Assembly (NCBI GenBank): GCA_020137815.1
Contig: CM035355.1
Span: forward strand, 7,502,001 to 7,566,000
From: Hormiphora californensis
Lineage: Eukaryota > Animalia > Ctenophora
Length of the DNA stretch: 64,000 bases
Direction of reading: 5' to 3'
The translations under genes and the position numbers were made by a program. The notes under the pieces were generated by a model. The model saw only the letters and a program-made list of their open reading frames with translations. It was not told the DNA's origin and searched no databases. Below are positions 15,945 to 54,978 of the stretch, one piece after another (within the stretch, counting starts at the first letter, position 1; each line of letters begins with the position of its first letter).

Positions 15945-17834
15945 ATGGCTACAAAGCAGCCTCCAATTGGGATTGATCTGGGTACAACCTACAGCTGTGT
16001 GGGGGTCTACCAGAATGGGAAAGTGGAAATTATTGCTAACGACATGGGCCACCGGACCACGCCCAGTTATGTAGCCTTTACGGACATTGACAGGCTGGTC
16101 GGGGATGCAGCGAAACAGCAGGGTGCCTACAACCCCCAGAACACAGTATTCGATGCTAAGAGGTTGATTGGAAGGGGTTACACCGACGAATGTATCCAGG
16201 AAGATCTGATGCATTGGCCTTTCAACGTCATCAACGAGAACGATAAACCGAAGATAGAGGTTGCGTACAAGGGTAAACGAAGGCTGTTTTATCCGGAGGA
16301 GATCTCAGCCATGGTCCTGGGTAAGATGAAGGAAACTGCCGAGGCGTACCTGGGTGGAACTTGTGAAGATGCCGTTGTGACAGTTCCAGCTTACTTCAAT
16401 GACTCACAGAGACAGGCAACCAAGGATGCTGGGGTTATTGCGGGGCTCAATGTCCTGAGAATCATTAACGAGCCCACGGCAGCAGCCATTGCGTACGGGT
16501 TAGATCGCCGGGCTGAGGGAGAAGTTGTGGAGAAGAACGTGCTGATATTTGATCTTGGTGGTGGTACATTTGATGTCTCAATCCTGTCCATCGATGACGG
16601 TGTGTTTGAGGTGCGATCTACATCTGGAAATACTCACCTTGGAGGAGAGGACTTTGATAACCGCCTGGTGGATCACCTTATCCAGGAGTTCAAGAGGCGG
16701 GAAGGAGAGGATATTGGGGGTAACAAACGGGCCATGAGGAGGCTTAGGACTGCCGCAGAGAAAGCGAAACGGTCTCTCTCATCCAGTACGCAGGCCTCAA
16801 TTGAGATTGATTCTCTTCAAAATGGTATCGATTTCTACACTAGTATCACTCGTGCAAAGTTTGAGGATTTGTGTATGGATCTGTTCAAGAGTACCATGGA
16901 ACCGGTAACTCAATCTCTCACTGATGCAGGTTTCGAGAAATCTAACATCCATGAGATTGTCCTAGTGGGTGGGTCAACTCGAATTCCCAAAATCCAGCAG
17001 CTCCTCTCCGAAATGTTCGATGGACGGACCCTGAACAAGAGTATTAATCCTGATGAGGCCGTGGCATACGGAGCAGCAGTCCAGGGTGCCATATTGACTG
17101 GAAATAAGGCCCAAGAGATCCAAGAGATGCTGCTGATCGATGTTATTCCCCTGTCCCTGGGAATCGAAACCGCGGGAGGTGTCATGACAACCCTGATTAA
17201 ACGGAACTCTGCAATTCCCATCAACATGTCCCGGATATTTACCACTTTCCAGGATCGCCAGCCCGGTGTGAGTATCCAGGTTTACGAGGGAGAACGGGCC
17301 ATGACACGGGACAACCACCTGTTGGGAAAATTTGAGTTGCACGGAATCATGCCTGCTCCTCGGGGTGTCCCCCAGATTGAGGTCACTTTTGATGTCAATG
17401 CCAATGGGATTATGGAGGTGTCTGCAGTGGATAAGAGCACCTCCCGGAGGTCGGCAATCCAGATTCGAAACGAAAAGGGCCGTCTAAGTAAGGAGCAGAT
17501 CGACAAAATGTGCCAGGATGCGGTTATTTTTGCGGAGGAGGATAGGGCTGCAAAGGGACGGGTTGAGGCAAGGACTGAGCTAGAAAACTACATCCAGGGA
17601 ATCAAAATCAACATTGACAACCCTCCCCAAGGTCTGAACATTAACGAACAGGATATGGCCACACTGCGACAGTGCTGTGAGGAGAACAGGAGATGGTTGG
17701 AGGTCAATTCAGACGGAACGGAGGCTCAATTTAGGGGAAAACTGGCTGAAATGGAGCGAAAATGTGGGCCTATTTTGATGAGGGTATATCAAAACATGAC
17801 TTCGGCTAATCAGTTTAGGAATAATGCAGTTTGA
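15945..17834 (+). CDS. HSP70: Cytosolic-type Hsp70, intronless, without C-terminal EEVD
   Basis: [38 protein letters not shown]; first ATG at 15945; ends ..QFRNNAV*. Confidence 0.95.
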
Positions 17835-18819: not shown

Positions 18820-20480
18820 CAACTCTATACGGTCTGTTGAGGATAAGGACTCTAAATTGACTCAAATCTTTTACGCAGACGACGGCCTTGGCGGGGGCAC
18901 TCTCAGTACTGTAAAAACCTGGTGGGAGAAAGTTAAACAAGATGGACCCGGTTATGGCTATCTCCCAAATCCAGGGAAATCCTGGCTGATTGTGAAACCA
19001 GAATTTGAAGAAGCTGCTCGATCCATGTTCCCTGACGTAAACATCACTTCTCAGGGCCAGCGCTACCTGGGTTCATACATTGGTACGGAGGAAGGCCAGG
19101 CCGAGTTTGTGAGGAATGAAGTTGCGAAATGGGAGAGCGAAATTGATCAGATTTGTGACATTGCCCTGAACGAACCTCAGCTTGCATACACTGCATACAA
19201 CGTCGGACTATCAAAACGTTGGAGTTATCTCATGAGAACCACTCCTGGGATTTCGGACCAACTAGGCACTATTGAGGAGAAAATTCATCAGAAGCTCCTC
19301 CCGGCGATAACCGGTCAGCCTGTTGTAAATGAAACCTTGAGATTGGTTGCATCCCTCCCTGTACAGTTTGGAGGTCTAGGAGTGGATAACCCCCAAACAA
19401 CATCAGACTCAGATTACAGCTTCTCGAAGTTTATCACTGACGAGCTCTCAGCTGCAGTCCTAGCTCAACAGGAAACATTTAAGATGAACCAAAAGGAACG
19501 AGCAGAGAAGAAAACCCTTATCCACCGAACCAAGAACGATATTCATCAGAAGAAAATCGATGAGATCAAAAGTTTGATGACATCAGCTGAAATCAGAAAT
19601 TTTGACCTACTCAACGAAAAGGGGGCCTCATCCTGGTTAACATGTCTCCCTCTCCAATCCTTGAACTTCACACTCAACAGGCAAGAGTGGCATGACGCCA
19701 TGTCTGCTCGGTATAACCTGCCTCTCGTTGGACAGGCCTTACCTCAGCATTGTGCATGTGGGGAAGAAAACACCATCGACCACCTCATATCCTGTAAACT
19801 CGGAGGCTTTGTATGTTTCCGACACAACAACGTGAGAGATCTCATTGGCCACGAACTGAATAAAGTATGTGTCGACACTAAGATCGAGCCCCATCTTCTA
19901 AATGTTCGAGGGGTGAATCTTCCGGCTGGCACTATAACAGCCGATGGCGCCAGACTTGACATCAGTAGTCGCGGCTTTTGGTCGGATATGGACAATATCT
20001 ATTTTGATGTTAGGATTTTCAATCCAAGGATATCGTCCAACTCAAACCAGACCATCGCCAAAACATATGAAAAACACGAGAGAGAGAAGAAAACATCCTA
20101 CCTCCACCGTGTCCTAGAGGTGGAAAAGTCAACATTCACACCACTGGTAATGTCAACTACAGGGGGCCTCGGAAGGGAATTTAATAAGACTTTGAAACAG
20201 TTGGCTGAGAAGAAGGCGACTAAAACAGGATATTCATACGATCAGTGCATCCGGTACCTGAGGCTAAGGTTGTCGTTTGCCATGGTCCGCTCCGTCACCA
20301 TTTCCATCAGGGGGCACCGTGGACGGCTTAGGGCGGAAGGCAGCAGCGGCAGAGACGATAGTATTTACCAAATAGACTAAATCTTTATTTATATAATTTA
20401 TTGACCCCGTTTGTTTAATTTATTATTGACATTGTTATGTGTATGACGGACTGTGTGTACCACTATTTATATTCAAGGCC
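18820..20480 (+). mobile_element. 5'-truncated CRE-clade non-LTR retrotransposon (RT C-half plus RLE endonuclease; ORF ends at 20380)
   Basis: YADD, NPGKSWLIVKP, YLGSYIG, EKGASSWL, CACG..H..SC..RH zinc motif, RLDI..GFW..FDVRIFNP..EKK restriction-like nuclease. Ends approximate. Confidence 0.85.
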
Positions 20481-24500: not shown

Positions 24501-27500
24501 AAATAGGTTTTTATGGGCCAAATATGGCTCACCTCGATTTAGTGGCACCCCGATTTAGTGGCAGGATTTTTCCCCCCGAGGATGCCACTAAATCGGGGTC
24601 CGACTGTAGTTCTTATAATATCTGACTGGTAAACTGCTGCTAACCAGGTTTTCTTGTAGATTTTGAGGTTAAAAGCAGAAAAAGGAGGTGTGGTGGAGGA
24701 TTCAGCAAAACAAATTGAGGCGGAGAAGAAGAAAACACAGAAAAGGGGCGAGAAAATGAATGTGAAAATGACAGAGTTTAGGAAGGAACTGGATTTGGAA
24801 CGGGAGTTAAATAGTCAATTACAGGTAGCTATGAGTTTTTGTATTTTGACAATTTACAAGCTCCGCAGCTTTCCCTCGCAGTACTTTATCGCCCTCTCAC
24901 CCCATTAGGGTCTGAAGCCCCGTGCCTCATTTGTGGTAGGCGGACTCTAGTGCTAACGGACTCTATATCTAAACCCAAGGAGGACTCCATATATCTAACC
25001 CTAACCTTTACACTAACCCCTAAATTCGAACCCAAATAACGGTCCTAAGTTAGGAGTCACTCCTAACACTTCTAAATGAGTATAGAGGCACAGCAAACTC
25101 TCGTTTCCGGCCTAACGGCCGAAATCTCGAGTTCGCTTTTCGTGATTCTAGCACTAGATTCCGCTTACCCTCATTTGTACACTGGGCAGGTCGGTAGAAC
25201 TTCGACAGAATTTAGGGTAGGTCAATTTAGGGTAGGTCTGAATTTAGGGTAGGTCTGAATTTAGGGTAGGTCTGAATTTAGGGTAGGTCTGAATTTAGGG
25301 TAGGTCTGAATTTAAGGTAGGTCTGAATTTAGGGTAGGTCTGAATTTAGGGTAAGTCCGTAACGTATCGTTTATCAAATCATTGCAATTCGAGATTAGGT
25401 TCTGATTAGGTCGCTGAACCGCGTCCCGTATCTCGTATCAACTCATTGCAATTCGATATTAGTCACCAATTAGGTCGCTGAACCACGTCCCGTATCTCGT
25501 ATCAACTCATTGAAATTCGAGGTTAGACACAGATTAGGTCGCTGAAGCACGTCCCGTATCTCGTATCAACTCATTGCACTTCCATCTTAGTCACCGACAC
25601 TAAGTACTATGTACTTAAAGTAGTTGAACTGAGTTAGGTCGGTAGACTTTGTTCCGTATCGAATCAAATGAAATTAGGACTGTTTGACTGTTCACTGATT
25701 AGTTTATGCACGTAGACTTTAAGAGTTCCATCCTGAGTTGAAACCTGTTTAAGAAGAAAAAAATTCGTTTGCCATCTAATTTGTGTCTAACCTCGAATTG
25801 TAATGATTTGATACAAGATACGGGACGTGGTTCAGTGACCTAATCTGTGTCTAACCTCGAATTTCAATAATGTTGATACGAGATACGGGACGCTGTTCAG
25901 CGACCCAATCGGTGACTAAGATCGAATTGAAATGAGTTGATACGAGATATGGGACGTGTTTCAGGGACCTAATTTGTGTCTAACCTCGAATTTCAATGAG
26001 TTGACACGAGATACGGGACGTGGTTCAGCGACCTAATCGGTGGCTAAGATCGAATTGAAATGAGTTGATACGAGATACGGGACGCGGTTTAGCGACCTAA
26101 TCAGAACCTAATGTCGAATTGCAATGCTTTGATAAACGATACATTACGGACCTACCTTAAATTCAGACCTACCCTAAATTCAGACCTACCCTAAATTCAG
26201 ACCTACCCTAAATTCAGACCTACCCTAAATTCAGACCTACCCTAAATTCAGACCTACCCTAAATTGACCTAGGGTAAACCGGGGCAATTCGAACAACCGG
26301 GGCAATTCGAACATAGTACTGCCCGTCTCTCACCTAGTTAAGCTATCATAATGACGTCATCCTATCTCCAGAAGAAAACTGCTCGTTCGAGCCTGCCCGT
26401 TACCACTAAATAGGCTCTAGATCCGGTTTAAGTTGGTCAATTTCCGATTTGAAAAAACCAGCTGAAAGCTAATAATATCAGCTTTCAGATGGTATAAAAA
26501 TTATTTAAATATTCGCACGTTTTCATTCCAAATTCTGGTAAATTAAGATTACCGGGGCAATTCGAACAACCGGGGCAATTCGAACATGGGCAATTTGGTT
26601 AACACACCGGGGCAATTTGGTTAACTCCCGGGCCAATGATGTGCAGTTCTTTGTACCACGTGATCACGCGTGATACCGGGGCAATTCGAGCAAGAACGAC
26701 CAGCGTGTAGATTGCGTGTAGATTACATTGTTCGAATTGCCCCCACCTCTAACAACACCAGGCGGGAATCTTCTTCTGGTGTTGTGAGGACGTTCACGTG
26801 ACTCCCACGTGACGAAATAAAGCACTCCTATTGGTGATGCTCGAATTGCCCCGGTACCAATTTTTCCGACCAAAATTTTTCAATTAGTTATTTAGTTAAG
26901 TAAATGATGGTCCCTATAGTTGAAATTTATCTTATTTGAAAGATAAAATAATGAACTTTAATCCTATATAATTTTTTTCATTGTATCTTTTTTTAAATGG
27001 GAGTGAGAACCGATTAAGTAAAAAGTTAACCATTTTGCCCCGGTTTACCCTACCCTAAATTCTGTCGAAGTTCTACCGACCTGCCGTACACTGTCAGACA
27101 CTAACCCCCATCCTCTCCTAGGAAAACCAGGCAGCATTGCGAGTACAACTCTCAAAGTTGGAGGCAGGTCTAAAACAGAAGGAGGAGATACATGAGAGGG
27201 AGAAGGAATCCCTGCAAGAGCACATACAGGATCTGATGTTCCATATCCAGGTTCGAACAGGAGGGGTGTAACATTATCACGCCCTGCATCCCTTCTTTTC
27301 TTTTTCCTATTCCTTTACATGAGCTTAATAACTCAGGGCTGGTTTTGCATTTGTTTTTGCACCAACAACCACTTTCTTCCCCGTTCAGTCAAAAGAAGCG
27401 ATAGAGAACAGTCCGTATAAGGGAGAGATAGTGGATGGTCAACTGCAAACTGCATCGCCATCCTCCTCTCGAGCGGACCAGACACCAAAGAAAAGAGGCC

Positions 27501-28223: not shown

Positions 28224-28822
28224 CCTCATTTAAATTGATGTTGTTTTTTGTACGTAATATTCCAGTCACATTTTGCCCCAACCTTGAACAGCGAGTTGTC
28301 ATGTTGGTAGCGCGCGGTGTGATAAAATGTAGGTACCTTCGCGCGGGAGTAGGGAGATTTTCTGCGTTCCACTTTAACAGATGAATTCTTCTTGGCGTTA
28401 AGAGCAGTTCATCCTCTTTGAGATGATACAATAAATAAACAAGGTTTGATTGTCCGTTTAATCTAAGCCAATGTCCACAATCCACATGACTGACCAGCCG
28501 ATAGCCGGATATCCACACTCCGGGTCAATAGCGCGCGCTTTGGAGAACCCGCGCCAAAAGTAGGGGTGTTCTCGCCAGATGGAAGGAGATGCGCGTTACA
28601 TTCCTGTCACCAGAGAAACAGTGCCCTGTGGAACAAATTACAACATCGGCCTAAAAGGATCGGTGTGAATATACATCCGATTAATTGACCGGTATTGTAT
28701 TTAGCAAAACGCGTCTTTTTAAGTGGTTTTAAAATCTTAATCCACTTACAAAATTCACATCTCAATTTACAAACACAATTCAATATCTCTGAAATTAAAA
28801 ACACAAATCACAATCTAAGGAA

Positions 28823-31800
28823 TTAACCGATTGGCGAGAGTCTCATTTGATCTAGCGTAAACTCAGCGGCTTCTAGAGATCCTTCGACCCACCCCTGGAA
28901 CTCACTCCATGCCTCGTTACTGACAAACAAGTTGTGTTTGTCAAACGGTCGTGACAACTTCTTCCGTAGTTTTCTGAAAATGATGGAGATGGGTAAAATG
29001 AAAACCGACATCCCGATGATTTGCCATTTCCCGATTAACTATAGACAGATAAATTCCGGTTTTAATATCTTAACTAGACAGATAAAATCCGGTGTTAATC
29101 TCTCTCACCTATCGTCACACCCGGGTCTCCACTGGTGTATTGCCACGGGATTGGAAGGGCACTCATGGTCACATCCCCAGCAGGTATAACTAGTTAGCAG
29201 GGGCCAGGGGACATTGTCAACATTAAACAGCTCTCCAAGCTGGAATAGCGCCTCCTTGACAACCGCATTCGAAGCGGGTGTGAACTGGTTTTTGTACTGA
29301 GTCTGCGGGAGAATGGATGTTAATTATCATCTTTGATTGTGGTACTATAATAGATCACCTAGCTACAAAAAAAACATAAACATTTGAAAAACTAAAGATC
29401 ATAATGTGGAACAACACTGAAGACCAAGAACCGACCGAATCAGGAAATACTGGTCCCTAATTGGCTGATAACCAGTCACGTGACCTACATAACGAGTTCT
29501 GATTGGTTGTTTACTTGTTTCGGTCGTTTCCTGCTGAAGACATACCTGAAGTTTAGAAGAGAAAAGAACAGAGATAGACTGAAGTTGCGACCAAAATGCA
29601 CTATTACTCTTGTCGCAGTAGATTGTCAGGGCCGCAGTGGCAGGGAGGGATGTCCGAGTATTGGGCGTGCTGTACCAGGGGTAAACCATTGATAATGGGA
29701 GGGAGGTGATATTGTTGCCGTAGAGTATCTTGCCCGGGATTGGAGCTAGATGGGGGAGTTGTTATAGGGTGGAGTATTGTTTAGTTTTCATTTCTCTCAC
29801 TCTCTCGCTGTCACTGTCACTGGCATGCACTGTGGCTGTCATGCACTCTCACTCTCACTCTCTATTTCTCTCTCCATCTCTCTCACTCACAGTAATCATT
29901 CCACCAAGCCCGATTGAAGTACAGGTTGATCTTGGTCATGTTGACATCGGTAACAGAGTTGTAACGGGCCTTCAACTTTTCCAATTCTGGAAATGGCACA
30001 TCCTGAAATTAAAGTTGGGTTTTAATACATAGAAAAACCTATCAGGGGGAGGCTAAGTGACCTAAAATAAATTATCTAATTGAGAGAAAATTTGAGAAAT
30101 TTTAGGTAGAAGCATTCGGAGCCAGCGGAGGATGAGGTTCCTTGTTTCGCCTGCTTTCATCAGGTATTTCGCCTAGCTTGTATTTATTTTCTTTTGGTTC
30201 TGTTTTACCGCTCATGGTAAGGTTTTTATTGGCATTTTATAGCATTTTTTCGAGTGAAGCACGAGTGGAAATGATATTTACAGACATTTTCTACCATCTA
30301 ATGTGGACGTTTTTCCATCTATATCAGTCTGTTATCTCATCTGGACAGTTATGTGAGCCGAGAGTGTTTAAATCAGTTTAATTCAGTGTTTTGGGTCTAC
30401 CATTTTTTGATATACGTCTTTAAGTAACCGCTCAGATCGCCTCTCAGTGTCAGTGTCAGTTCTACTACACTGGCCCTGTGAGGTAAGGGCGGCATATAAA
30501 TAATAATAATAATATTCAAACTTATATCCTGCCCATATTCTACAGGGACAGCAGAGCTTTACAGATGCTGTCACTGGAGGAAACTCAGAGCAGTTAACTA
30601 ACTCTTAACCCAAAAATAGAGACTCAAACAAAAAAACGGTGGAAAAATCCAAATTATCCGGCTCACATAAGTGGAAAACAGATTAGGCTCATAACAGACC
30701 AAAATAGAAAAAACTCGGAAAAAGGCCACAGGATATATGTCACCACTGTCACTTCATCACTCCAAATATAGACACAGATCAAATGTTCAGACAACAGATT
30801 CTGAACAACTGGATAACTGAAAATCGGAATAAAATTACACACTCGTGCTTCACTCATGCTGCAAACCCATCGAATAAAGATCAGTTAAAAACTTGTCACG
30901 AGGTAAGATACAGACCTAAGTACAATACTTACGCTAGACAGTACAGCGGGATGGGAGGAGTAGGTACCGAGAAAAGATGAAGGCTGGAAAAAGGAAAAAC
31001 AACCGAAACTAGCCTGATCCAAAGGCATCCACAAACAATCTTGTCTTTAACCCCGTTTTGAAAGATTCCACAGCAGGCCGAGATCGCAACTCAAGGGGGA
31101 GTGCATTCCACAGATCTGGCAGGAGAACAGATGGTCTCCTTTTCCTCAGTTTAGAATTTGCATTAATGCTCGACAGCTTCGGGTACTGGAGCTTATAAGG
31201 GTCTGGAACAGCAGTCGATCTGGTACGGCAAGTAACATCAACGATATCTGTAGGTATTTGCTCAATGAGGTAATCTGGAGCACTTCCATGTACAATCTTA
31301 TAGGCCATGAGACAGGCCTTAAAGATCACCCGTTGCTCCACAGGGAGAATGTGGGTTTCTCTCATGTAAGGGAGGTAGTCCTCTTGATGACCGTGGAGTC
31401 CATAGATAAACCTTATACAAGAGTTGAGCACTTTCTGTAACCGAGAGATGAGCTTCATTGGCAAACCTCCGTAGAGGACATTGCAGTAATCCAAGCGGGA
31501 TATAACCAGCTGCTTAACAAGAAGGATTCTGGTAGAGAAGTCCAGGCATCGGTGGACTTGCCATAAATTCCTCAGTAGCATTCCACAGTTTCTTCTGACA
31601 CTGTTCACCTGACGTTCCAATGTCAGGTTCTCATCCATATAAATACCCAGAGTCTTTCCGGTAGTACCTGTGAAGTCAACTGGGTAGATATCTGCATCCC
31701 CAAACCTAATACAGGGCTCAAAAGCCAGCTTGTCAATGGCACTGCTCTTCCCTAGAAGAAGGAGCTCCGTCTTCGACTCATTACACTTCAGCCAATGCTG

Positions 31801-34800
31801 AACCATCCAAGTCTTGATCTGATCAAGACACTCTTCAACTTTCCTCCTCGTGATACTCCATCCACTTTCATCAAGAGGGACTAGACTCACATAGATTTGA
31901 GAGTCATCCGCATAGAGTTTGATTTTGAGTCCATACTTGTGTACCAGATCCTGTAGTTCCTCAACATATAAAAGAAACAAAACCGGTCCGAGAAGGGACC
32001 CTTGTGGCACTCCACAAATCAAGTAGATAATCTTCGATAGTTCTCCTCTAACGTTGACTCTGAAGTTCCTCAGTCCAAGATAGCTAGTAAACCACTTGAG
32101 TGCTGTTCCTCTTATTCCAAATCTCCTTCTCAAAACATCCACAAGTTTAGCATGGTCAACCGTGTCGAACGCTGCACTCATGTCCAAAAGGAGTAGAGCT
32201 ACAACATTTCCCTTATCCATCTCCTGCAGTAGATCATCAAACATCCCCATGAGTAGAGTTTCACAGGAATGACCAACTCTATATCCTGACTGGTGAGAGT
32301 TGAGTAGGTCATTTTCATTCAGAGCCTGATTCAGTTGATCAAGGACAACTTTCTCTAGAACCTTAGAGACAAAGGGAAGGTTAGACACAGGACGGTAGTT
32401 GGAAAGGCTATCACGATCACCATAGGGGTTCTTGATGGTTGGAAAAACCAGTGCTTGCTGGAACAATTCTGGAACAATACCTTGACGGATAGAAGAATTG
32501 ATAATCTTAGTAAAGAGTGGAGCAAAAACTTCCACGCACTCTTTGATCAACCATGTCGGTATAAGATCAAGATCACACGTTTTATCCGACATATTCTTAA
32601 TGATCCTCTTCATCTCATCCTCAGAGACTTCCCTGAATTCCTCAAGAATACAATCCTTATCCAGGTCCACAAGAGAGTCCACATCCTCCGCAGGAAAGTC
32701 CACATCTGCCTTCACTGAGTTCCTGATTTTTTCCACTTTTCCAGTAAAGAAGTCCGCAAAATCCTCGGCCAGTTTACGATCACAATCCACATCCGGCAAC
32801 AACACCTCACTGTTTCCAAGTAGTCGATTTAGTTTCCTCTGTAACGCTTTGGAATCCCCTTTTGATTCTTCAAGATCTTCTTTCAGATAGTTAGTCCTCG
32901 CTTCCTTATCAACTCTACTAAACATCTTCTTCATCACGTTATACTGCATCTTCGTAACAGGCGTCTTCTTGCTTCTCCAAGTCCTCTCCGCAGTCCGACG
33001 TCTTCTTAGCGCATCCCTGACATCATCATTGTCTCTCCACGGGCGAACCTTTTTCACTTTCTTTCTTCTCTTCAAAGGGACAAAACTATCTACTAACTCC
33101 TTCAGTTCTCTTTCATAGATCTCAAACAAATCATCTGGGGAATCCAAATCAAACCGTCCTTCAAGGCCACTTCCTCTGAGGGCCTTCATGAACAATACCG
33201 GGTCCACTGATTTAAAGTCTCTGTAGGTGTTAACTCGATCCCGTTGCTGTAGGTTTCCAACCTTAGTCTCCAGTACGACTTCACTCAGAACAAGAAAATG
33301 GTCAGACTCTGTTCCCTCAGGATGTATTTCCACAGATTTAACTTTCTCCTCTACCTCCTTTGGACATATAACCAGGTCAAGAGTGCCTCCACGGTTGTGT
33401 GTTGGTTGCCTGGGGACAAGCTGAGAAAACTCATGTGAGTCCAGGAGTTCAGCAAGCTTCTTAGTGTAGAAGTTGTCCCTATCCTGCCATTGAAAGTTAA
33501 AGTCTCCCATAATAAGGGGAAGACCAGTCTTCAATACTAGCTCTGAGAGATAGTCTGTGAATTCCTCTAGGAACTTCGCTTCAGTGAACCTAGCTTTACC
33601 GGTATAGGGCGGTCTGTAAACATTACATATCCGAGTAAGGTCCATTCCATTACCAATTAAAATCTCCTGAATCTGGAACGATTTAAATTTCCTCACTGGT
33701 GGTAGTTTCATCTTAACTCCATCCCTGTAGAGTATCCCAATACCGCCTCCTGCCCTCTCCGCCCTAGGGGATGAGAAAATATTCCAGCCATAGTCTCTTA
33801 TCTCCTGAAGTTTCGCGGTATCACTAGTCTTCAAGTAGGTTTCCTGAATCAGACAGATATCACATTCCATGTCTTCAAGATGCGCTATAACCCCAGACGT
33901 TTTATTCATTATCGAGTGCACATTTAGTGTGCCAACACGCCACGTCTCTTTACCTTCAGTTCCTCCCACGCCCTCGTCAGATAAGCGTTTTTTCTCTCCT
34001 TACTGACACCACTTGTGTTTTCCATCAGTCTTCCTCGAGCATTAACATAATGCGGACACAAGTTACTTGATGCTGGATGGGATTTCGCATACTTCTTGTC
34101 ATCCTTACTACCTCCAACATCACAGTTTACACACTTCATCCGATTGAGTTCATTCCCACTCTTCGCCCTACATTGTCTGGTGTCATGATCTCCTGCACAG
34201 AAGGCACAGGTGGCGCTTTTATCTTTACTCGGACAATAGACAGATCCAGCTACGTGTCCATAACGCTGGCAGTGGAAACACTGAGTAACGTAGAATCTGT
34301 CCTTCACAATGTGCTGTCTTAACTTCAGGAAAATCCTATCTCGATTATCAGCAATGGCTTCTCGTATATCAGGTGTAACCTTGAGCACCGCATACCTCCC
34401 AGCAGTGTTAACATGAATGACACTGACAGCTTGCCCAGACTCATATAGCCTCTTCACCACTTCATTCTTATCACTCAAGATGGCGTCCAATAGCACCTCT
34501 TTGTTCAACAGGTCATGGTCCAGATCGGAAATCAATACCCGAGGATCCATCTTCTTCTGCTTCTCAACAAACGGAGTAACATTCAGAAACGGGGACAGCA
34601 CTTTCTCTGCTTCTTTGAGGTCGTCATCAGTTGCAAAAAACAACTGAGTGCCCTTCCTGTTCACCGAAGTGTCCAAGACGGGGATGTTCTTCAGAGCTTT
34701 CACGACCTTCGGTTTCACTACCATTTTCCACTTCTCCTCACACATTGGTGTCACTCCTTCCTCATTGCTGTCTTTGATGCTCATATACCGTTTCACAGGG

Positions 34801-37800
34801 GTAGCTGGTGCAGCTTTCTTCTCCTGCTGACCAGAACTACACGTTACTTCACTCTCCTCTCGGTTCTTCTTCAATATCTCATTGACTACTGGGGCCATGA
34901 GTCCAGGTAGGCTATTCATCAACTCTTGCTTCAGTTTTGAGAAACCATCCTTCAGATCATCACTTGAAATCGAGACTCCAGAATCTGACGATGGTGTAGG
35001 ACACCGGGAACTGTCCGGAAGCATCCGGTAACACATAATCAACATCTGCCAAAGATCCTTCTTCGTAGGTCCACCTGGAGCATCCATAGGCTCACCCGGG
35101 GTACCAGCATCCTCCTCCAATTTCTTCCACACTGTACTGCCTTTACATTTGTCAGAGAAGCTCGTGACAAGGAGCTTACCTTCGAAGTCCTTCTTCGTTC
35201 CACTTTCATACTGGGGTGCCAATCCCGACATTCTATCCTGTAACAGTGGCGCGAGGATCCGATCCACCAAGATTTGGCTTCCTGGATTTGGCTCAACGAG
35301 GTCTCCCAAGATCTGCCCAACTTAGAAAGAGACAGGAACACCAGGCTTGTCTTGTCTTGAAAAGAGGGGGATTGAGCAGAAGTCTTAGAAGAGTAACGAG
35401 GAGCAGTTGAACGGAACCTCAAATTAATTTGTTTAAAGTAGTGTTGAAAAGTTTGAAACATATTATTATTATTATTAGTTTCATTTGAATGAACTAGTAA
35501 ACCCGTTCGCCCTACGGGCGAATTTCGGGGAAATGGTATTGGTAGCTGGATTAGGGAACACTGACATCATCAGTCTAACTAATTACATGCACTATCCCAT
35601 CTTAAGTAACGGTACCGTAGAAGGAGCTCAGGCGGGATCGCTGCGAGTTTCTGGTTTCAGAACGTCAGATGATGATCCGGCGATCAAAGTTATAAAAGAA
35701 CTTACTGAGATTGATCATCGGTTCTGTTCAACCTCTAACGTCTTGTTCGTTCTCCCTGCACTTCTTTTGGTGTTGCTGCATTTAAACCCCTCAGTGTATG
35801 GAAAAGTATAAGAGAATGGCGGTGAGATCTTGCGTGAATAACTCCAATTGTCGCTGTCGTATATCAATAGTTGTTGAAGAGAGCATATTAGCTGGAACAA
35901 AGCAAGATCAAATGCACGTGCACGTGCAGTATAGTAGCAACCATGCCATTGGCAACGGCTCCGATTCCTGGCCCCACTCCAGTAGTATTCCACAGTCCAC
36001 CTCTAAACCTGCACGTGCTAAATGCCATATAAGGTAAAAAACGTCACACAGGATTTCCCTATTTGCTTTAATAATAGTATGATTGAAACATTGTAACTAA
36101 CCATGATTCTAACTTTCTCAATCGCTTTCCTTGGTATCGCCAGAACAGTCATCTTTGCGTGAATTCGAACCGCCTTTTTACCGTTTCCACCTGGTTGATA
36201 CACCAACTCACAACCCCTGTTACTCCAACCTAGATCGTTTTTCATAATAGTCTGCAGCCGACAATTAAGTTTCAACCACATCGAATCATCAGCGGAAGAG
36301 TTTACACCAAGTCGACCGTCCAATGATTTCTTCAACGCGAGAATGAGATCAGAGAATCCGTTAGAAAACTTGGAAAAATTACTCTCAATAGCTGCGTGAG
36401 TCCTCTCCATTTGGATAACAATTCCTGCGTTCGCATCTCCCTTTATAAAGCACTCAAAGTAGGCCTCTTCCAACATCTTGATAATCCAGGAGCTGTATCC
36501 CATGGAACGGAGGAGGCCACGCATGGAGTACATGTAAATTGGGATGTTTTCCCACATGAAATGTCGGCGAAATTCATACCAAAAGTCTAGATTCTGATAT
36601 ATCCGTACTAGCTCCATGTTCTTCTGATCTAGGACTTCCTTGACTTTCTTTTCATCACCCAGCACAGTGAGGAGCTTGTGTATGTTAGCATTAAGGATCG
36701 TGATGTAGACCTCCTTATACACGTCACCTGGGTGAAGGAGAATAGTTACCAATAGTTACCAATTATATACTAGTAGTAACTAGTAGTAACTAATTTAGTA
36801 ACCAATAGCTACCATTTACCAATAGTTAGTATCTGAGGCGAAGTGCGCAATCCTAAAATAAATTAGCCACCTAGGTGCCCCTACCTGGGCTTTTTCCGAT
36901 TTCATCTTGCTGCTTGATGCCAAACAATCGAGTCCAAATACCAGGATTCTCTTCCGCGTACCAGGAAGTGAAACTTTCCCCTTTAAAGTTGTTTCTATTG
37001 AAACCAACTTTACCCGTTGATTTCATAGGGAATGGTTCAATGGGAAGGGCATCCGGTCTACCCTCTTCCTCTTTGAGATCTTCTATCAGCTTAACCAATC
37101 TGGGCATCACCTGTTGGAATATTAATTAGCTGCAGGTCAAACTATTGTTATATGTAGTTGTCTCACAAAAGACTGAACTCTCCGAACCGGGCCGCGATGT
37201 TTTAGTTATAATGCAGTATGACAAACTGTTGGAATATGTTTCTAGGCCAAGATCTGCTCAAACTGACAAATCAAATAGAGTTGTTAGAAGTGAGGTATAG
37301 AGAGGTATGAGGTATGAGAGGTATGAGGTATGGAGAGTCGCACACAAACCTGGTCTTTTGCAAACTTCTTCTTATCGTGTTCATCGTACTCCACACATAT
37401 CCTCATAGCACCCTCCTCACACAACACAAAGCTGTCCATATTATTTTTCTTCCTGCTGCTAAAAACCTTATCCGTCCAGATTCTCCCACCGATGCGATCA
37501 TCAGACTCGATCATTAGGATGTCTTTACGGGTCAGTTTGGGATTATCTCTCAGCAACTCTCGGAGGATGTATAAACCCGTTACTCCGGCACCTACCACTA
37601 CCACTTCGTAGGTTTTATCGTTGGGAATATCGTCAGGTTGATGTGTGCCTGGAATTGATTTATATGTTACAAGGAAAATTGTTGATGTTACAAGGGAAAT
37701 ATAGAAGGTGCGGGAAAGGGGGAATCAACATTGAACGATATACAACAGCCTTCTCAAACAGACTGCATGTAAATTCTAAAATAATTACCTACCATTTTTA

Positions 37801-37976
37801 GTAGCTGATAACGAAAGTTCCTCTCTATCAGACACACTTCCTTCACTCATTGTATCACTAGTGGTACTATAGTATATACTATCCTCAACTGTCCCTCCCA
37901 GCAAAGAGATGGGGCTTTCTGGTAGATCCACGGCTGACAAAGTGATGGCTTCAAAGTCGTCCTCAAAAATGGGCAT
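28823..37976 (-). CDS. Flavin-dependent amine / L-amino-acid oxidase; exons about 37976-37789, 37648-37350, 37110-36884, 36727-36114, 30002-29891, 29745-29546, 29301-29110, 28975-28823
   Basis: VVVVGAGVTGLY..E..DRIGGRIWT..EEGAMR (FAD site); LAIPRKAIEK joins in frame to DVPF..KINLYFNRAWW across a 6.1-kb intron; then ITSLPL, ALTIYCD..FW..LQ, VV.EA..QL.ELF..VP.P, H.W.PG, NEAWSEFQGWVEGSL. Confidence 0.85.
29425..29533. mobile_element. 109-bp hAT-type MITE, second copy
   Basis: Near-identical to 3820-3928; TSD CTGAAGAC (29417-29424, 29534-29541). Confidence 0.85.
30106..30500 (+). mobile_element. 5'-truncated L2-group 3' end (last ORF2 codons plus 3' UTR); its (TTA)n tail probably displaced to 35461-35476
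   Basis: GTA GAA GCA TTC GGA GCC AGC GGA GGA TGA (VEAFGASGG*) parallels the VDAFGSG* end of the intact ORF2; ends in a GCCCT..AGGGC hairpin followed by GGCATATAAAT. Confidence 0.6.
31009..33999 (-). CDS. LINE ORF2: apurinic endonuclease plus reverse transcriptase (frame open from 33999; no ATG before the first APE motif)
   Basis: VGTLNVHS, IQETYL, GGGIGILY, VYRPP, MGDFNF, TLDLV, SDHF; NYRPVSNLPF, QSGYR.GHS.ET, LLDMSAAFDTVDH, GVPQGSLLGP, YADD, SRLDYCN. Confidence 0.93.
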   Translation of the reverse strand, partial: GEKKRLSDEGVGGTEGKETWRVGTLNVHSIMNKTSGVIAHLEDMECDICLIQETYLKTSDTAKLQEIRDYGWNIFSSPRAERAGGGIGILYRDGVKMKLPPVRKFKSFQIQEILIGNGMDLTRICNVYRPPYTGKARFTEAKFLEEFTDYLSELVLKTGLPLIMGDFNFQWQDRDNFYTKKLAELLDSHEFSQLVPRQPTHNRGGTLDLVICPKEVEEKVKSVEIHPEGTESDHFLVLSEVVLETKVGNLQQRDRVNTYRDFKSVDPVLFMKALRGSGLEGRFDLDSPDDLFEIYERELKELVDSFVPLKRRKKVKKVRPWRDNDDVRDALRRRRTAERTWRSKKTPVTKMQYNVMKKMFSRVDKEARTNYLKEDLEESKGDSKALQRKLNRLLGNSEVLLPDVDCDRKLAEDFADFFTGKVEKIRNSVKADVDFPAEDVDSLVDLDKDCILEEFREVSEDEMKRIIKNMSDKTCDLDLIPTWLIKECVEVFAPLFTKIINSSIRQGIVPELFQQALVFPTIKNPYGDRDSLSNYRPVSNLPFVSKVLEKVVLDQLNQALNENDLLNSHQSGYRVGHSCETLLMGMFDDLLQEMDKGNVVALLLLDMSAAFDTVDHAKLVDVLRRRFGIRGTALKWFTSYLGLRNFRVNVRGELSKIIYLICGVPQGSLLGPVLFLLYVEELQDLVHKYGLKIKLYADDSQIYVSLVPLDESGWSITRRKVEECLDQIKTWMVQHWLKCNESKTELLLLGKSSAIDKLAFEPCIRFGDADIYPVDFTGTTGKTLGIYMDENLTLERQVNSVRRNCGMLLRNLWQVHRCLDFSTRILLVKQLVISRLDYCNVLYGGLPMKLISRLQKVLNSCIRFIYGLHGHQEDYLPYMRETHILPVEQRVIFKACLMAYKIVHGSAPDYLIEQIPTDIVDVTCRTRSTAVPDPYKLQYPKLSSINANSKLRKRRPSVLLPDLWNALPLELRSRPAVESFKTGLKTRLFVDAFGSG
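33924..35231 (-). CDS. LINE ORF1, gag-like with three Cys/His knuckles
   Basis: First ATG at 35231 (MSGLAP), conserved in the second copy at 61456; CFHCQRYGH..C, CAFCAGDH..C, CVNC..H..C. Confidence 0.88.
   Translation of the reverse strand: MSGLAPQYESGTKKDFEGKLLVTSFSDKCKGSTVWKKLEEDAGTPGEPMDAPGGPTKKDLWQMLIMCYRMLPDSSRCPTPSSDSGVSISSDDLKDGFSKLKQELMNSLPGLMAPVVNEILKKNREESEVTCSSGQQEKKAAPATPVKRYMSIKDSNEEGVTPMCEEKWKMVVKPKVVKALKNIPVLDTSVNRKGTQLFFATDDDLKEAEKVLSPFLNVTPFVEKQKKMDPRVLISDLDHDLLNKEVLLDAILSDKNEVVKRLYESGQAVSVIHVNTAGRYAVLKVTPDIREAIADNRDRIFLKLRQHIVKDRFYVTQCFHCQRYGHVAGSVYCPSKDKSATCAFCAGDHDTRQCRAKSGNELNRMKCVNCDVGGSKDDKKYAKSHPASSNLCPHYVNARGRLMENTSGVSKERKNAYLTRAWEELKVKRRGVLAH
35418..35459 (-). other. 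Genomic copy of the ctenophore spliced-leader exon
   Basis: Minus strand reads GTTTCAAACTTTTCAACACTACTTTAAACAAATTAATTTGAG, matching the ctenophore SL as I recall it (not database-checked). It is joined directly to the LINE 5' UTR; no SL-RNA intron or Sm site is recognisable after it. Confidence 0.85.
35494..35813 (-). mobile_element. Short non-autonomous Helitron
   Basis: 3' end: TTCGCCC-GTA-GGGCGAA hairpin, 8 nt, CTAG, then T. The putative 5' TC(TTATAC) near 35813 is less certain. Confidence 0.55.
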
Positions 37977-38752
37977 TGTGAGTAAATTTACAAAAACTGT
38001 GCCCCCTTTGTACTGCTCCTGATAACTGGATAATTGTCACGTGGTAAGCTTATCCGAGAAAAGAACTCAAAAGCAGGCAGAGATGCAACCAATGTTAGCG
38101 ATTTTTAGAGCAAAATGAAGGTGAAAATGCAAAACTGAGACGGAATCGGTGGACATGTGAAGGTATATTTGTTGTTATCTTAACCTTGGTGTGAGGCAAG
38201 AGCGGGCCTGAGTCGAATAGGGAGTGAGGAGAAGAGAAGACAGAGAGAGAGACGAGCGAGAGAGAGGTAGGAAGGGCCGCAGGAGAGCAGATCGCGCATC
38301 CCTCTGCGAGAGAGAAGGGAGCGAGAGACGAGAGCCGAGGAGCGAGATAGAGAGGGAGCAGAGGAGAGGGACGAGAGCTGCGGCATAGAGTAGAGAGAGC
38401 AGTATGCTCAGACTAGAGAGATCGTCGAGCCGGAGATACTATCAAGTACTCTCTGCTCTCGATGCTCGACCGAGCATCGCAGCAAGCGAACTCTCTTCGA
38501 TCTCAATCTCTCTTTCAGCGCTCTCTCTCTCTCTCTCTCTCTCTCTGATCTCTCTCTCCCCGCAAGTTAAATCTATTATCAGTTATGCAAGCATATTACA
38601 TAAAATGCAAGCATATTTCATAAAATGCACCACCAAATACAGGGCCTCTACCGTCAGAAGGTGGAATTCCGAGAACCACATGGTACAAATATGAAACACA
38701 CTGATTTTTTAAAACGGACATTTGGCACAAAAAGGGGTGGCTGGGTTCTCGA

Positions 38753-39791
38753 TTAAATATCATCAATATCATTCAACATCACATTCTGATCATCTTCCTC
38801 GTCTGAACTGCCATCAATATCGTCCTGGAAACAAATGTGATGGTGAGATGTGGGGATTTAATATTTATAGATGGTGAGATGTGGGAATTTATAGATGATG
38901 GGGATAATGTTGGGGGACTATGAGACCTGGATGACGAGCTCGAGTGCTACGTACAAGTGGTGGTTTCTGGTAGCACTCGAGCTCGTGATGGTTTGATTGG
39001 GGACGCCTATAAATTTAGGGGGACACCCGACACGGGACACCCTGCAATACGTACCTGGAACTCAATTCCGTCCAGATCATCATCTTCATTGATTTGGGCA
39101 TCATTAATCTTGGCAGTCTCGGGGAGTTCCTTGTAAGCCTTCAGGTTCCTCGCTTCGTCGGGGTTATACTTCTGAATCACATCAGCCTTGCTGTCTTGGT
39201 AATCCCTTAGACCTGGTGAGTTGTATTGTATGAGAGATCGGAGGTGAAAGGGTAGATAGAGGAGGTGGATATGTCATGGAAACATTGGAATAACAATGTC
39301 ATATCTCCCTGGTTAATCCCTTACCTATCATATGATATCTCCCTGGTTAATCCCTTACCTATCAATATGATATCTCCCTGGTTAATCCACACCTTCTTCC
39401 TCAGTTTACCCCGAATGTGACACAACCTCTTAACGCCGTCAAAACAGAAAGCCTCCAATCGACCGTTACCTAACAACTTCAATACCTGATGAGGGTAGGG
39501 TTAGGGATGGGACGAGGGAGAGAATAACAGAGAAAGGAACGGGGAGAAAACGCTCTCATTTTAAAACAAATAATAAAGTATGCTTCCGCAAATAAGGGAG
39601 CGTTAATGAAAAAGGAAGAATTCAATTCAGTGATGGTGAAACTACGACAACCATAACACAGCTAAACATAAAGCCCATACCTGAGCGTATTCCTGGCCGT
39701 GTTCCTTGAAAACCAACTCCCTCTTTTCACTTTCATTTTCGTTTTTACCCCTCCGCCTGTTCTTACCTCCCTTTCCCTTGTTCTTAGGCAT
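38753..39791 (-). CDS. EIF1A: Translation initiation factor eIF1A; 4 exons (about 39791-39681, 39485-39358, 39212-39055, 38825-38753)
   Basis: [96 protein letters not shown]; acidic tail DIDDI*. Confidence 0.96.
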
Positions 39792-40693: not shown

Positions 40694-41792
40694 TGTGGTG
40701 GGAGAAATGGCTCACCCTAGAACAATTGCAAAAATGCATAATAACCTGTAAATCACTTGTAATTTGAAGTTCAAACTAGTTTTAAAATAGTTTTGAAATT
40801 TTTTTAGAAAAATTTTAGTTTTGAAATAGCTTTTGAAATAGCTTTTGAAATAGCTTTTGAAATAGCTTTTGAAATAGCTTTGGCCGGGTGGTAGAAACGG
40901 CTCATGTGGCTCATCTGGCAGCTGCACGATCATTATGAACACAAGGACATTCATATAACAGCGAAAACCAGTGTACCCGACTAATTTTAATACGCCGAAT
41001 CACGTGAGCAACTCTGGCAAGCGCTCAGATGTGAAGAAAGTGCCCTAATTGAGCATAATTGGGTGTAATTGACCGGACTTACAACTTTTCTCCTGAAAAC
41101 TCTAGAAGTTAATGTGAGGGCACTTTTCCGACTAACTTTGATACGCTGAATCACGTAAACAACTTTTCCAAGCCCTCAGAGATGAAGAAAGTGCCCTAAT
41201 TGAGCAATTACGGTCAATTAGACCTAATCAGACTCAATTAGGGCAATTTCCCCGCCTCTTAGGGCTTGGAAAAGTTGCTTACGTGATTCAGCGTATCAAA
41301 GTTAGTCGGAAAAGTGCCCTCACATTAACTTCTAGAGTTTTCAGGAGAAAAGTTGTAAGTCCGGTCAATTACACCCAATTATGCTCAATTAGGGCACTTT
41401 CTTCACATCTGAGCGCTTGCCAGAGTTGCTCACGTGATTCGGCGTATTAAAATTAGTCGGGTACACTGGTTTTCGCTTTTATATGAATGTCCTTGTGTTC
41501 ATAATGATCATGCAGCTGCCTGATGAGCCACATGAGCCGTTTCTGCCACCCGGCCAAAGCTATTTCAAAAGCTATTTCAAAGGCTATTTCAAAAGCTATT
41601 TCAAAAGCTATTTCAAAAGCTATTTCAAAAGCTATTTCAAAAGCTATTTCAAAACTAAAATTTTTCTAAAAAAAATTCAAAACTATTTTAAAACTGTTTC
41701 AAAACTAGTTTGAACTTCAAATTACAAGTAATTTACAGGTTATTATATGCATTTTTGCAATTGTTCTAGGGTGAGCCATTTCTCCCACCACA
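40694..41792. mobile_element. 1.1-kb near-perfect palindromic non-autonomous element
   Basis: About 510-bp arms, TGT..ACA termini, CTCCAG direct repeat on both sides (40688-40693, 41793-41798), (GCTATTTCAAAA)n arrays. Confidence 0.85.
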
Positions 41793-44532: not shown

Positions 44533-45069
44533 CAGGTCTCATTTCCATCACAAACATATCAATCACTGATCTTCTCTTCAAGCAACTACAGCTCCCACTA
44601 CTACAACAACACTTCAGCTGAACTCTCTGTGATACTACTTCATCTGATATCCAACAACCAACCAGCAGCAACTACTCCTACCAGTCCCTAACTGTTATCC
44701 AGCCTACTGAACACAGCAGCTCCTACTACTCAGCTGATATCTCTACCACGTGCCACAGCAGCTCCCGATCTCTCTCTCCCTACCACTGCCACCATGTACG
44801 GGAAAACCCGAGCTACCGAGATCTTCACGGACCACTACAGTCTCATTGAGAACATCGGAGCGGGCGGATACGGCACTGTTTGGACTTGTCTGGACCGGGT
44901 CACGAAGGAGAAGTTCGCTGTTAAAATAGTACCTGATAAGAAGTGCTGGAGGAAAACTTGGTAAGTTTTATAACACAGCTCCATCCCCCAACAACCCCAT
45001 CCCTGATCCCGAACTCAACCCCTCCCCTTTATTGATCAGACCCCCCTCCCTGGTAGCCCACATTCCCAA

Positions 45070-46860
45070 ACCCACCCTCCCTAATTCCTAAACCAACCCT
45101 CCCTAACCCACCCTCCCTAACCCACCCTCCCTAACCCACCCTCCCTAACCCACCCTCCCTAACCCACCCTCCCTAACCCCTCCCTAACCCACCCTCCCTA
45201 ACCCCTCCCTAACCCACCCTCCCTAACCCACCCTCCCTAACCCACCCTCCCTAACCCTCCCTCAAGACACAGAGCGTGGTGCCCATCTTCAAGAAAGGTA
45301 ACCGGTCAGATGCTGCCAATTACAGGCCAGTCTCACTTACATCTCATCTGGTTAAACTCTTTGAGAGAATCATGCGTACCAAACTGGTTGAGTTCATCAC
45401 AGCCCAGGAAATCATCCATCCAGATCAACATGGCTTCCAGAAAGGCAAGAGCTGCCTCACCCAGCTCCTCCACCACGTTGAGGATGTGATGAAAGACATG
45501 TGTCGAGATGAGAACGCCGATGTCATCTACCTAGATTTTTCAAAGGCATTCGACAAGGTGGATCATGCAATCCTTCTCAAGAAGCTCCATCTCTATGGCA
45601 TCCGAGGTCAAATCCACCAGTGGATCACCAACTTCTTGACAGGCCGATATCAGAGAGTCATCATTGATGGTAAGATGTCTGATCCTATCCGTGTCCTGAG
45701 TGGAGTCCCCCAGGGTACGGTCCTAGGACCCTTACTATTTGTCCTGTATATAAACGATATGTTCACCGTCGTCAAGCACTCCAAGCTGAAAGTCTTTGCT
45801 GATGACTCAAAGGCCCACAGAAACATCCGGACCAACCTCGATCACCAGCTACTACAAGAAGATCTTTTAGAGGTGGTTAGATGGGCTGACCAAAACAACA
45901 TGGAACTCAATGAATCTAAATTCCAACTCCTGCAGCATGGCAAGGATGATGACCTAAAATCTAACTATCAGCTACCATCCGGGAAGTCTCTCTGCTCTGA
46001 ATCGGTTGTAAAAGACCTGGGAGTTATCATTGACAGCGATCTAACTTTCAGGCCTCACACCCGGGAGAAGACAGCTGAAGCATCCCGGAAAGCAGCATGG
46101 ATTCTCCGTACCTTTTCCACAAGAGAGCCGGGTCATATGTTGCTGCTCTATCAGACTCATGTGAGATCCATACTTGAATACTGCTGTGCACTGTGGGACC
46201 CATGCTTCAAATGTGATATATCAAGTGTCGAAGCAGTGCAGCGCTCGTTCACAGCTAAGATCTCAGGCTGTAGTGAGTTAAACTATTGGGAGAGGCTAGA
46301 AAAGCTGAAACTCTATTCGCTACAGAGGAGAAGAGAGCGGTATGCCATCATCATCATATGGAAAATATGGAGCGGACTCATCCCTAACTCCATTGGCATC
46401 AACTTCCCCACTTCTGTCACACGTGGAGTCTCCTGTATCCGACCAATTGGTCACTCTAAATACAAATCTGTCAATACGATGAGACAGAACTCCTTCGTCT
46501 CCAGAGCTTCTGCGTTATTCAACATTGTTCCAGCACAAATTAAATCTCTCCCAAAACTGGAACAGTTCAAATCAGCACTGGACACATTCCTGAGGACCAT
46601 ACCAGACACGCCACCCACCCCCAACTACATCGGTGTCAACAACAACTCCTTGTTAGAGTGGGCAGTCAGTGGCACCCTTGTTCAGGTGTCTGGACTGGAC
46701 CTCCATAATGCGGTGGAAACGCTCGACGTTTTGGCCTGATGACATTCCTGTTCGAAGCCACCAAAGGTAGGTACCTAACCCCCCTCCCTAACCCCCTCCC
46801 TAACCCACCCTCCCTAACCCACCCTCCCTAACCCACCCTCCCTAACCCCCTTTCTCTAAC
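45070..46860. repeat. (CCCTAACCCACCCT)n 14-bp minisatellite (about 45070-45262 and 46774-46860) split by a CR1 insertion
   Basis: Visible tandem units, each containing the telomeric hexamer CCCTAA, in kinase intron 1. Confidence 0.85.
45255..46773 (+). mobile_element. 5'-truncated CR1-clade LINE (RT open to 46739, very short 3' UTR, AGGT tail)
   Basis: VPIFKKG..NYRPVSLTS, QHGF..GKSCLTQL, YLDFSKAFDKVDH, SGVPQGTVLGP, FADD, RSILEYC..W.P, SLQRRRERY. Confidence 0.92.
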
Positions 46861-48023
46861 CCCTCTTTCTCTATCTCCAGGTGTGACAAGTTCCAGCTGC
46901 GTGTCCCAGACGAGGTGTCTCTGTGGTTACCCCTACAACACCCAAATATCACCAAACTCCATGAGGTTAGTAAAACACCCCTCGATCAATTAGTCCCGTT
47001 GCAGCTCTTATCTAGTGTAAATTGCATATATTATCCCCTCATTTCTAACCCCCACCATCTCTAACCCCCAATCTAACCCCCACCGTCTCTAACCCCCAAT
47101 CTCCCCCCTCACCAGGTATTTTACGATGAAATCTCCCGATACTGGGCCATTGTGATGGACTATGATTCCGATTTTGAAGATCTGTTCAACTACATTGACC
47201 GAAATGGACCCCTCTCCAGCACTGTTTCAGCCCACATTACACGACAGGTATAACAGTTGTTCAGAACAACACACACGATACCGTTACTCAGATCTTCTCT
47301 TTTTACTTCCAGTCTCATTTTACCCCCTGGCCCTTCCCCATTCCAATTTCTAACCCTCTATTCCCGGTTCTCAGGTTATCAAAGTTGTCCACTACCTAGT
47401 TTCCTCTGGAATCGATCACCGCACTAAGGACGACCCCGCCTGCCGTGATTCCGCACTTAGGGAGGCTGCATTGAAGCAAGCGTTGTGTATGGGAGTTTTG
47501 CGGGATGAGGTAGGTGTACAGCTCCTGGAAGAAGCAACTGGCGAAGTGTCCTTTACCGAACTACTCCAGATCGGTGCCAACAGGGAGATGGCTTACACCG
47601 CCCGTCACGAAGCACGGGACGAGGCTGTCAATGTCAGCGTTCTGGCGCGAATCCCCACAAGAGGGACAGGACTGACGCGAGCAATGCTGGGGGCTGTGAA
47701 GAATTAGGACATGTCTATCACAGAGACTGCAGATCTACCCGAGCACCCGCCAACTACCGAGCTCCTCCTAACAAACGCTACGGGAGACAGAACAACTATA
47801 ACCGTCCAAACAACTACAACAGAGAAGGAATCAACAGTGGGAACAACCACCGCTACAGGGATGGTGGCTACTCTGGTGGGAACCCCAACGGGCCGAGATA
47901 CAGTAATTACCGCAACCCTCCTCAAGACAGATTAGGCTTCGTGAACTATAGGGACCGTTGGAACCCTGGGCCGCAGGAGCCTGTCAACCAGACTGCCCCT
48001 GAAGCACCTCAAAAAAACTAGCT

Positions 48024-54943: not shown

Positions 54944-54978
<35 letters not shown>

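Follow-up and report, generated by a model that had tools for sequence, protein, structure and literature searches.

The window analysed here is a 64,000-nt stretch of the Hormiphora californensis genome (contig CM035355.1, positions 7,502,001 to 7,566,000). A complete long interspersed nuclear element (LINE) with two open reading frames (ORFs) lies in it at 35459-30501 on the minus strand, and a copy of the host spliced leader (SL) stands at its 5′ end. The parts of the element are listed below, all on the minus strand; loci labelled L come from a scan for the SL that is described further on.

35418-35459, minus: SL exon copy, 42 nt, exact against the printed leader and the L013 SL gene
35232-35417, minus: 5′ untranslated region (UTR), 186 nt, with a pyrimidine-rich start, an AG-free first 32 nt and no stable fold
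33924-35231, minus: ORF1, 435 amino acids (aa), with three CCHC-like knuckles visible in the sequence
33987-33993, minus: candidate heptamer for -1 frameshifting, A AAA AAC, lying 60 nt ahead of the ORF1 stop
31009-33999, minus: ORF2 frame, with apurinic-type (APE) endonuclease and reverse transcriptase (RT), overlapping ORF1 in the -1 frame
30501-31008, minus: 3′ UTR of about 500 nt, with an (ATT)n tail at 30515-30501, a tail also found in L009 and L006

Both reading frames are intact, as the initial annotation had it: ORF1 (35231-33924) is open, and so is ORF2, which from its first ATG spans 33909-31009 (966 aa) in a frame open from 33999. The 3′ end had been placed at 30497 and lies rather at about 30501-30503. 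In ORF2, Pfam finds PF03372/PF14529 (Exo_endo_phos) at residues 7-207 and PF00078 (RVT_1) at 502-726; the best PDB match has an E-value of 2e-10, and the L1 endonuclease was also matched. Upstream of its knuckles ORF1 is weakly predicted to contain RRM-like folds (model pLDDT 56, RRM entries among weak Foldseek rows), and this low-confidence model had no Foldseek match at E up to 0.001. Rfam, ribozymes included, returned no family at E up to 1 over 30000-36200, and no long terminal repeats (LTRs) are among the repeats listed for the element. With APE followed by RT in ORF2, an upstream ORF1, a simple-repeat tail, a dispersed distribution and no LTRs, the element is an APE-type LINE. By architecture it is of the L2/CR1 type, and the L2 label of the initial annotation is provisional; its short or absent target duplication is as in L2 but not specific to L2.

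The 44-nt leader printed for H. californensis (PMC8527503) has its last 42 nt reproduced without a difference at the 5′ end of the element (35459-35418). This 5′ end also matches, at 42/42 nt, the SL exon of the SL-gene/5S tandem repeat at L013, and the proposal that this 42-mer is the species SL is thereby borne out. No further SL copy was found in the window: a 29-nt SL pattern with up to three mismatches gave one match (shuffled sequences, 0/100), and the next-best local alignment of the 42-mer scores 34 against 84 at the true site. The first 2 nt may be target-derived through microhomology, and AG occurs within this SL solely at its two ends. Genomic copies of the leader have been counted in H. 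californensis (718) and in Mnemiopsis (491), and the available part of that report does not state what they adjoin (PMC8527503).

Sequencing reads place this junction in DNA. Among 22 listed runs, 20 contain part of the stretch, six of them at least 70% of it; contigs were compared in four runs, and 32 of 6537 contig pieces are listed. These are Logan contigs, which drop rare variants, and one sample may be the source of the window itself. In a DNA run (X2), a 740-nt contig covering 34705-35444 at a depth of 660.7, with one differing letter, begins in ORF1, crosses the UTR and takes in 27 nt of the SL, and the neighbouring body contigs have depths of 671-843. The SL is therefore joined directly to the 5′ UTR in genomic DNA, as first described, the junction being seen at the level of the family. 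Since a common 5′ end lacking the SL would be expected to break this contig, and it is unbroken, the SL-joined form predominates among full-length copies in the X2 sample; the fraction of SL-bearing copies is read from this one contig. No junction-spanning piece is among those listed for X4 and X5, and in X9, which is organism B, a diverged contig extends 5 nt into the SL. At the 3′ end of the SL, 22 contigs in X4 and 23 in X2 run on into other sequences; one X2 loose end is the 5′ UTR of L012 at 29/30 letters (by eye), and a loose end in X4, X2 and X9 has 15 letters in common with a decayed copy beginning at 61308. Element 3′ ends are more abundant than 5′ ends, with X2 contig depths of 1141-1411 near the 3′ end against 661-843 in the 5′ half, uncalibrated to copy number.

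Metagenome contigs were scanned for the final 32 nt of the SL, and 19 loci were returned: six LINEs of the same clade, four other retroelement-like loci, one SL-gene/5S array and eight mRNA-like contigs, six of which have Pfam matches. Retroelement-like sequences thus make up 10 of the 11 non-mRNA loci. The SL pattern had 0 matches in viral contigs. ORF1 identity to the window LINE is 75% in L009, 43-46% in L002, L005, L006 and L019, and 34% in L012. In a midpoint-rooted APE tree of 87 sequences (80 of 91 unnamed homologues passing coverage, plus seven elements), the SL-headed members span a 34-leaf clade with a support of 0.83. The SL joins the UTR at the same position within about 1 nt across elements, while the flanks differ among all 11 SL-headed elements, several of which carry 38-461 nt of upstream flank. 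Over the 100 nt after the SL, five distant families share 52-59 identities with the window LINE and L009 shares 87. The same SL-UTR junction thus recurs in the family and in six diverged relatives, contrary to the initial suggestion that a one-off dead-end copy might account for it.

The leader itself behaves differently from the UTR beside it. L013 and cDNA-like contigs suggest an SL exon of 43 nt that starts at A; counted from the 3′ end, the 11 elements match the 43-nt SL-gene exon over 42, 43, 42, 41, 41, 40, 35, 42, 42, 41 and 38 nt. Each SL is perfect to its own clip point, the clip being 0-8 nt, and 10 of the 11 are clipped by 1-8 nt. The search fixed the last 32 nt only, so the further 3-11 matching bases were not selected for.

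Outside the clade, L011 is a second type of SL-headed LINE, with an APE domain by Pfam and a PHD-like ORF1 by eye, and L010, L016 and L017 are SL-headed retroposons with ORF1-like frames in which no ORF2 was seen. At 462-1620 (plus), L017 holds a complete SL-headed element with a 318-aa coiled-coil ORF1-like frame, a microsatellite tail, no RT and flanks on both sides; L010 encodes a homologue of this frame (27%, E 5e-16). It is possible that L017 is a non-autonomous, ORF1-only retroposon. These four loci have in common a GCCCC...GGGCAG-like 5′ UTR motif, weak in L011. At L013, SL RNA gene and 5S rRNA alternate in an array with a 778-bp repeat; the SL there is followed by GTAAG, and the predicted SL RNA folds into three hairpins (z -3.87). 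Rfam at gathering score had the 5S rRNA of L013 as its sole match in six loci, and no SL followed in tandem by a relic was found in the 10 retroelement loci or the window.

The 3′ end of the genomic SL bears on whether it could itself be used as an acceptor. In a matrix built from 10 sites this end scores 3.4 bits, above 90% of 1696 AGs, the true host acceptors scoring 0.2-8.1 bits when each is left out in turn, and it differs from the acceptor of the intron in which the LINE lies at one of 10 positions, namely the one that makes it GAG. The score is compatible with trans-splice acceptor use and does not prove it.

The simplest reading of a perfect, variably 5′-clipped SL beside diverged UTRs is the one given in the initial annotation, that this copy derives from an SL-bearing RNA. 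Because the SL is clipped at nearly every insertion and never inherits the damage, it is most simply explained as renewed from the SL RNA; and because splicing removes the original acceptor, daughter copies could continue only if the written-in SL supplies one. We consider it probable, though by no means secure, that host trans-splicing renews the 5′ end of the LINE in each cycle. In such a cycle, RNA polymerase II would begin a precursor upstream of the copy, either as host read-through, which its place in an intron would permit, or at a signal of the element that acts upstream. To the spliceosome, all sequence as far as the AG that closes the genomic SL would be an outron, to be exchanged for the capped SL of the SL RNA. 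The ORF1 protein would bind the SL-capped RNA, as would the APE-RT protein, whose synthesis may involve a -1 frameshift, and target-primed reverse transcription from the (ATT)n tail would reach to within 0-8 nt of the cap, writing the SL into DNA. Integration would follow with no or very short target duplication, and the lost cap-proximal bases would be harmless because the next splice would restore them.

The lossless cycle with no element promoter that the initial annotation envisaged is a hypothesis, and a wider version of it is possible but less likely than not: several ctenophore LINE lineages may have given up their own promoter in favour of an SL copy as self-regenerating acceptor, read-through transcription, 5′ repair by the SL RNA and an RT made by -1 frameshifting, in which case many of the 718 and 491 leader copies (PMC8527503) would be element heads.

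Several observations weigh against renewal by trans-splicing. The SL ends in GAG, a form found in none of 10 host acceptors (nine CAG, one TAG), and the matrix has just 10 sites. Flatworm SL acceptors match UUNYAG. TTTCAG or TTTTAG stands right after the SL in L010, L011 and L017, which the simple model does not predict; one might speculate that they attract the splicing machinery and that the site stays heritable through occasional splicing at the GAG upstream. The scan that gave the relatives selects for the SL, all six clade loci come from one metagenome assembly, and two of them have a flank of just 5-6 nt. Searches for relatives that were blind to the SL returned no loci (ORF2 in viral contigs, an ORF1 alignment in genome and viral contigs). 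The only other relative in the window lacks the SL, its homology starting about 35 nt inside the 5′ UTR, where it is apparently clipped:

61308-64000, plus: decayed relative C, 67-72% identity, frameshifted, no SL

In the read data, rare variants are dropped from Logan contigs, so a rare SL-less copy would escape notice, and low-depth joints (31-110) are only a hint of several to some tens of copies, their depth being uncalibrated to single-copy DNA. Finally, the RNA runs hold 0.00-0.13 of the words of the stretch, the single same-species RNA run next to none, and provide no RNA evidence.

The alternative that survives best is that the SL stems from a single capture or a small number of them and acts today as an internal promoter or initiator, transcription starting at the genomic SL without trans-splicing and selection keeping its sequence perfect. 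GAG as a poor acceptor would fit this, as would the survival of TTTCAG/TTTTAG after the SL in L010, L011 and L017. SL-internal promoter elements were reportedly described in a nematode SL gene by Hannon in 1990. Similar elements have been suggested for DinoSL (PMC12014239). However, 10 of the 11 elements have lost 1-8 nt, and yet what is left of each agrees with the SL throughout, free of inherited junk and of changes peculiar to one family. Among families with ORF1s that are 34-75% identical, unrepaired leaders should have decayed from their first bases on, and activity would have to be confined to the rare complete copies (1/11). We therefore think this explanation unlikely.

Less probable still is a population of a few master copies equipped with a promoter of their own upstream and with an ordinary acceptor, the SL-headed copies being their dead-end products. 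Rare branches of this kind would be dropped from Logan contigs, but the X2 contig is unbranched at the start of the UTR, and an acceptor that is spliced away would not be heritable by retrotransposition, which makes a clade of many families hard to explain.

Targeting or capture of an SL RNA gene by the element, in the manner of CRE or NeSL, or use of its SL as a splice donor, is largely refuted and has very little left in its favour: GT follows the SL in the window LINE, and a 9-nt word shortly after the SL recurs in the SL-RNA intron of L013 (by eye and post hoc). The donor role raised in the initial annotation fares poorly: just 3 of the 11 elements have GT after the SL, and what marks the SL RNA gene, namely its intron, hairpins and 5S neighbourhood, is missing. 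The true gene has GTAAG, three hairpins and 5S linkage, whereas the three element 5′ ends that were folded lack hairpins (z +0.05 to +1.65; at the window LINE, +1.65 against -3.87 for L013 with its donor and hairpins). The flanks, moreover, differ at 11/11 elements and the target of the window LINE was the tail of a sister LINE. A one-off retroposition or an assembly or cDNA chimera is scarcely credible: read support is for the family-level junction and not for the flank joint of this copy, and the authors of the S. mansoni study raise a chimera caveat for their own cases (PMC5832876), but a DNA run contains the junction at the depth of the element body, and six related families and four other elements are arranged alike.

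The overlap of the two reading frames offers a separate lead. A AAA AAC/T is present 48-60 nt before the ORF1 stop in 7/7 clade members (the window LINE, L002, L005, L006, L009, L012 and L019), and it is also kept in the decayed window copy at 62676 (plus). The first A of the heptamer comes from a codon that differs between members, and AAA accounts for the smaller share of lysine codons in these ORF1s (107/288). A conserved GTLN motif precedes the first ORF2 ATG in 5 of 7 members; in the window LINE, ATG 33909 comes after GTLN. A_AAA_AAC ranks among the most shift-prone heptamers (PMC5009743). No conserved stimulatory structure was found downstream of the heptamer (fold z -0.96 to +1.53). The conserved heptamer and the -1 overlap, in members that share ancestry, point to a candidate programmed frameshift that would make ORF2, and this is a testable lead on ORF2 production in its own right.

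The surroundings of the LINE record how it arrived:

28820-37976, minus: host gene, predicted flavin amine oxidase, eight exons (in-silico exon solution, 669-aa frame)
30173-30502, plus: 3′ UTR remnant of sister LINE B, which served as target, with 64-66% identity to the 3′ UTR of the LINE
35458-35477, plus: split-off (ATT)n tail of sister LINE B, forming the 5′ flank of the LINE
35490-35900, minus: high-copy repeat, with a hairpin and then CTAG near 35495, recognized from depth, loose ends and fold

The sense orientation in a host intron noted at the outset stands in the predicted gene model, which was solved in silico on the same strand: the LINE lies within intron 4 (about 36101-30003, ~6.1 kb). 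Exon 2 of this gene has weak FAD/amine-oxidase Pfam matches and two other exons scanned have none. One copy is not a bias, and a preference for sense insertion in introns does not follow from it. A joint of 30502 to 35458, with one extra base, occurs at a depth of ~1000 in X2 and X4 contigs and is the normal 3′ end of the sister family; the LINE was therefore inserted antisense, just before the sister tail. Against that 3′ end, the insertion involved a 1-nt loss and 2-nt microhomologies. A 5-bp ATATG target duplication was also considered and ranked below the 1-nt loss as less parsimonious. The DNA beyond the SL, which had been taken as unrelated, is so only in part: its first ~18 nt are the sister (ATT)n tail, and then comes the high-copy repeat, whose end we take to be a Helitron-like 3′ end. 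Two further X4 joints probably belong to other insertions, one a partial SL-SL back-joint (35459/35430, depth 31) and the other an SL set directly on the Helitron-like end (35453/35493, depth 67).

Other mobile sequences are found elsewhere in the window. An RT frame at 45372-46739 (PF00078) lies within 45013-47110 between CCCTAA-like tandem repeats on both sides, and an LTR-retrotransposon-like region at 48114-55450 (plus) has several frames, an integrase (PF00665, PF17921) and further ORFs without Pfam match. A 451-aa frame at 19025-20380 (plus) has no Pfam match; a motif in it suggests a resemblance to the C-terminal part of a non-LTR element of the restriction-like endonuclease (RLE) type. 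Two long foldback elements (25200-26280 and 40740-41750) have inverted arms of 357-386 nt and tandem subrepeats. Ordinary host genes in the window are an intronless UFL1 at 13110-15323 (minus; by Pfam), a four-exon gene at 38750-39791 (minus), which we assume to be eIF1A-like, and an intronless gene at 15945-17834 (plus), assumed to be Hsp70-like.

LINEs lose 5′ bases at each copying step, and the known solutions are internal promoters or self-cleaving ribozymes. If the proposed renewal is true, a 5′ end renewable from the host SL would be a third solution to 5′ erosion, in an animal and as a fixed feature of a clade. It would offer a testable explanation for many of the genomic SL copies left unexplained in the available part of the Hormiphora genome paper (PMC8527503). 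The SL could also serve as an easy marker when full-length LINEs are counted in ctenophore genomes; conversely, SL-gene counts, clusters with a "shared first exon" and the 5′ ends of transposable element (TE) consensus sequences may be confounded by SL-headed LINEs.

CRE, SLACS, CZAR and NeSL are RLE elements that target SL RNA genes. They share with the window LINE a non-LTR element adjoining an SL exon; the distinction drawn in the initial annotation nevertheless holds, as the LINE has an APE domain, dispersed and varied flanks, a sister LINE tail as target and no SL-gene context. L2 and CR1 lineages of the Jockey superfamily with a type I ORF1 resemble it more closely in their two ORFs, APE and RT, CCHC knuckles, microsatellite tail and short or absent target duplication (PMC4120745, PMC4245944); a type I ORF1 (RRM and CCHC) occurs in some L2, CR1 and Jockey groups and is not specific to L2 (PMC4120745, PMC4245944). 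Unlike in those lineages, the 5′ end here is the host SL, and ORF2, which overlaps ORF1 in the -1 frame, lies behind a slippery heptamer that is conserved. The trypanosome elements L1Tc/ingi are likewise APE LINEs in a trans-splicing host but represent the opposite solution, with the internal promoter Pr77 and unspliced transcripts (PMC1874656).

Other systems come closer at the level of the leader. In Hydra, TE RNAs also use host trans-splicing, and about 30% of TE Iso-Seq reads carry an SL; this is an observation on RNA, and a genomic 5′ SL on the elements is unreported in the part of the paper at hand (PMC12220107). In dinoflagellates, retrogenes with SL relics likewise have the SL written into DNA by retroposition and later re-spliced, but they are passive host genes in which splicing at an internal AG leaves a relic of 15 nt (PMC12014239). 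The ctenophore LINE, too, has a genomic SL at the 5′ end of what was a reverse-transcribed RNA; it is, however, autonomous, and the loci seen hold no relic in tandem. Parasitic flatworms offer the nearest precedent: genomic SL exons are joined to LINE or LTR elements, and the authors suggest that trans-spliced TE transcripts were integrated (PMC12582326, PMC5832876). Those cases, as far as the available text describes them, are incomplete leaders lying no more than 500 bp from a repeat (597 loci) or six merged cases that come with a warning about chimeras, and the SL fragments are treated as discarded by-products (PMC12582326, PMC5832876), whereas in the ctenophore intact families throughout a clade have a near-complete SL as their fixed 5′ end. 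In the literature searched, which left Repbase and subscription journals aside, we found no report of SL-headed LINEs in ctenophores. The presence of an SL on retro-inserted TEs is thus already in print for flatworms, and what is new, within that literature, is an SL that forms the 5′ end of LINEs throughout a clade in a ctenophore.

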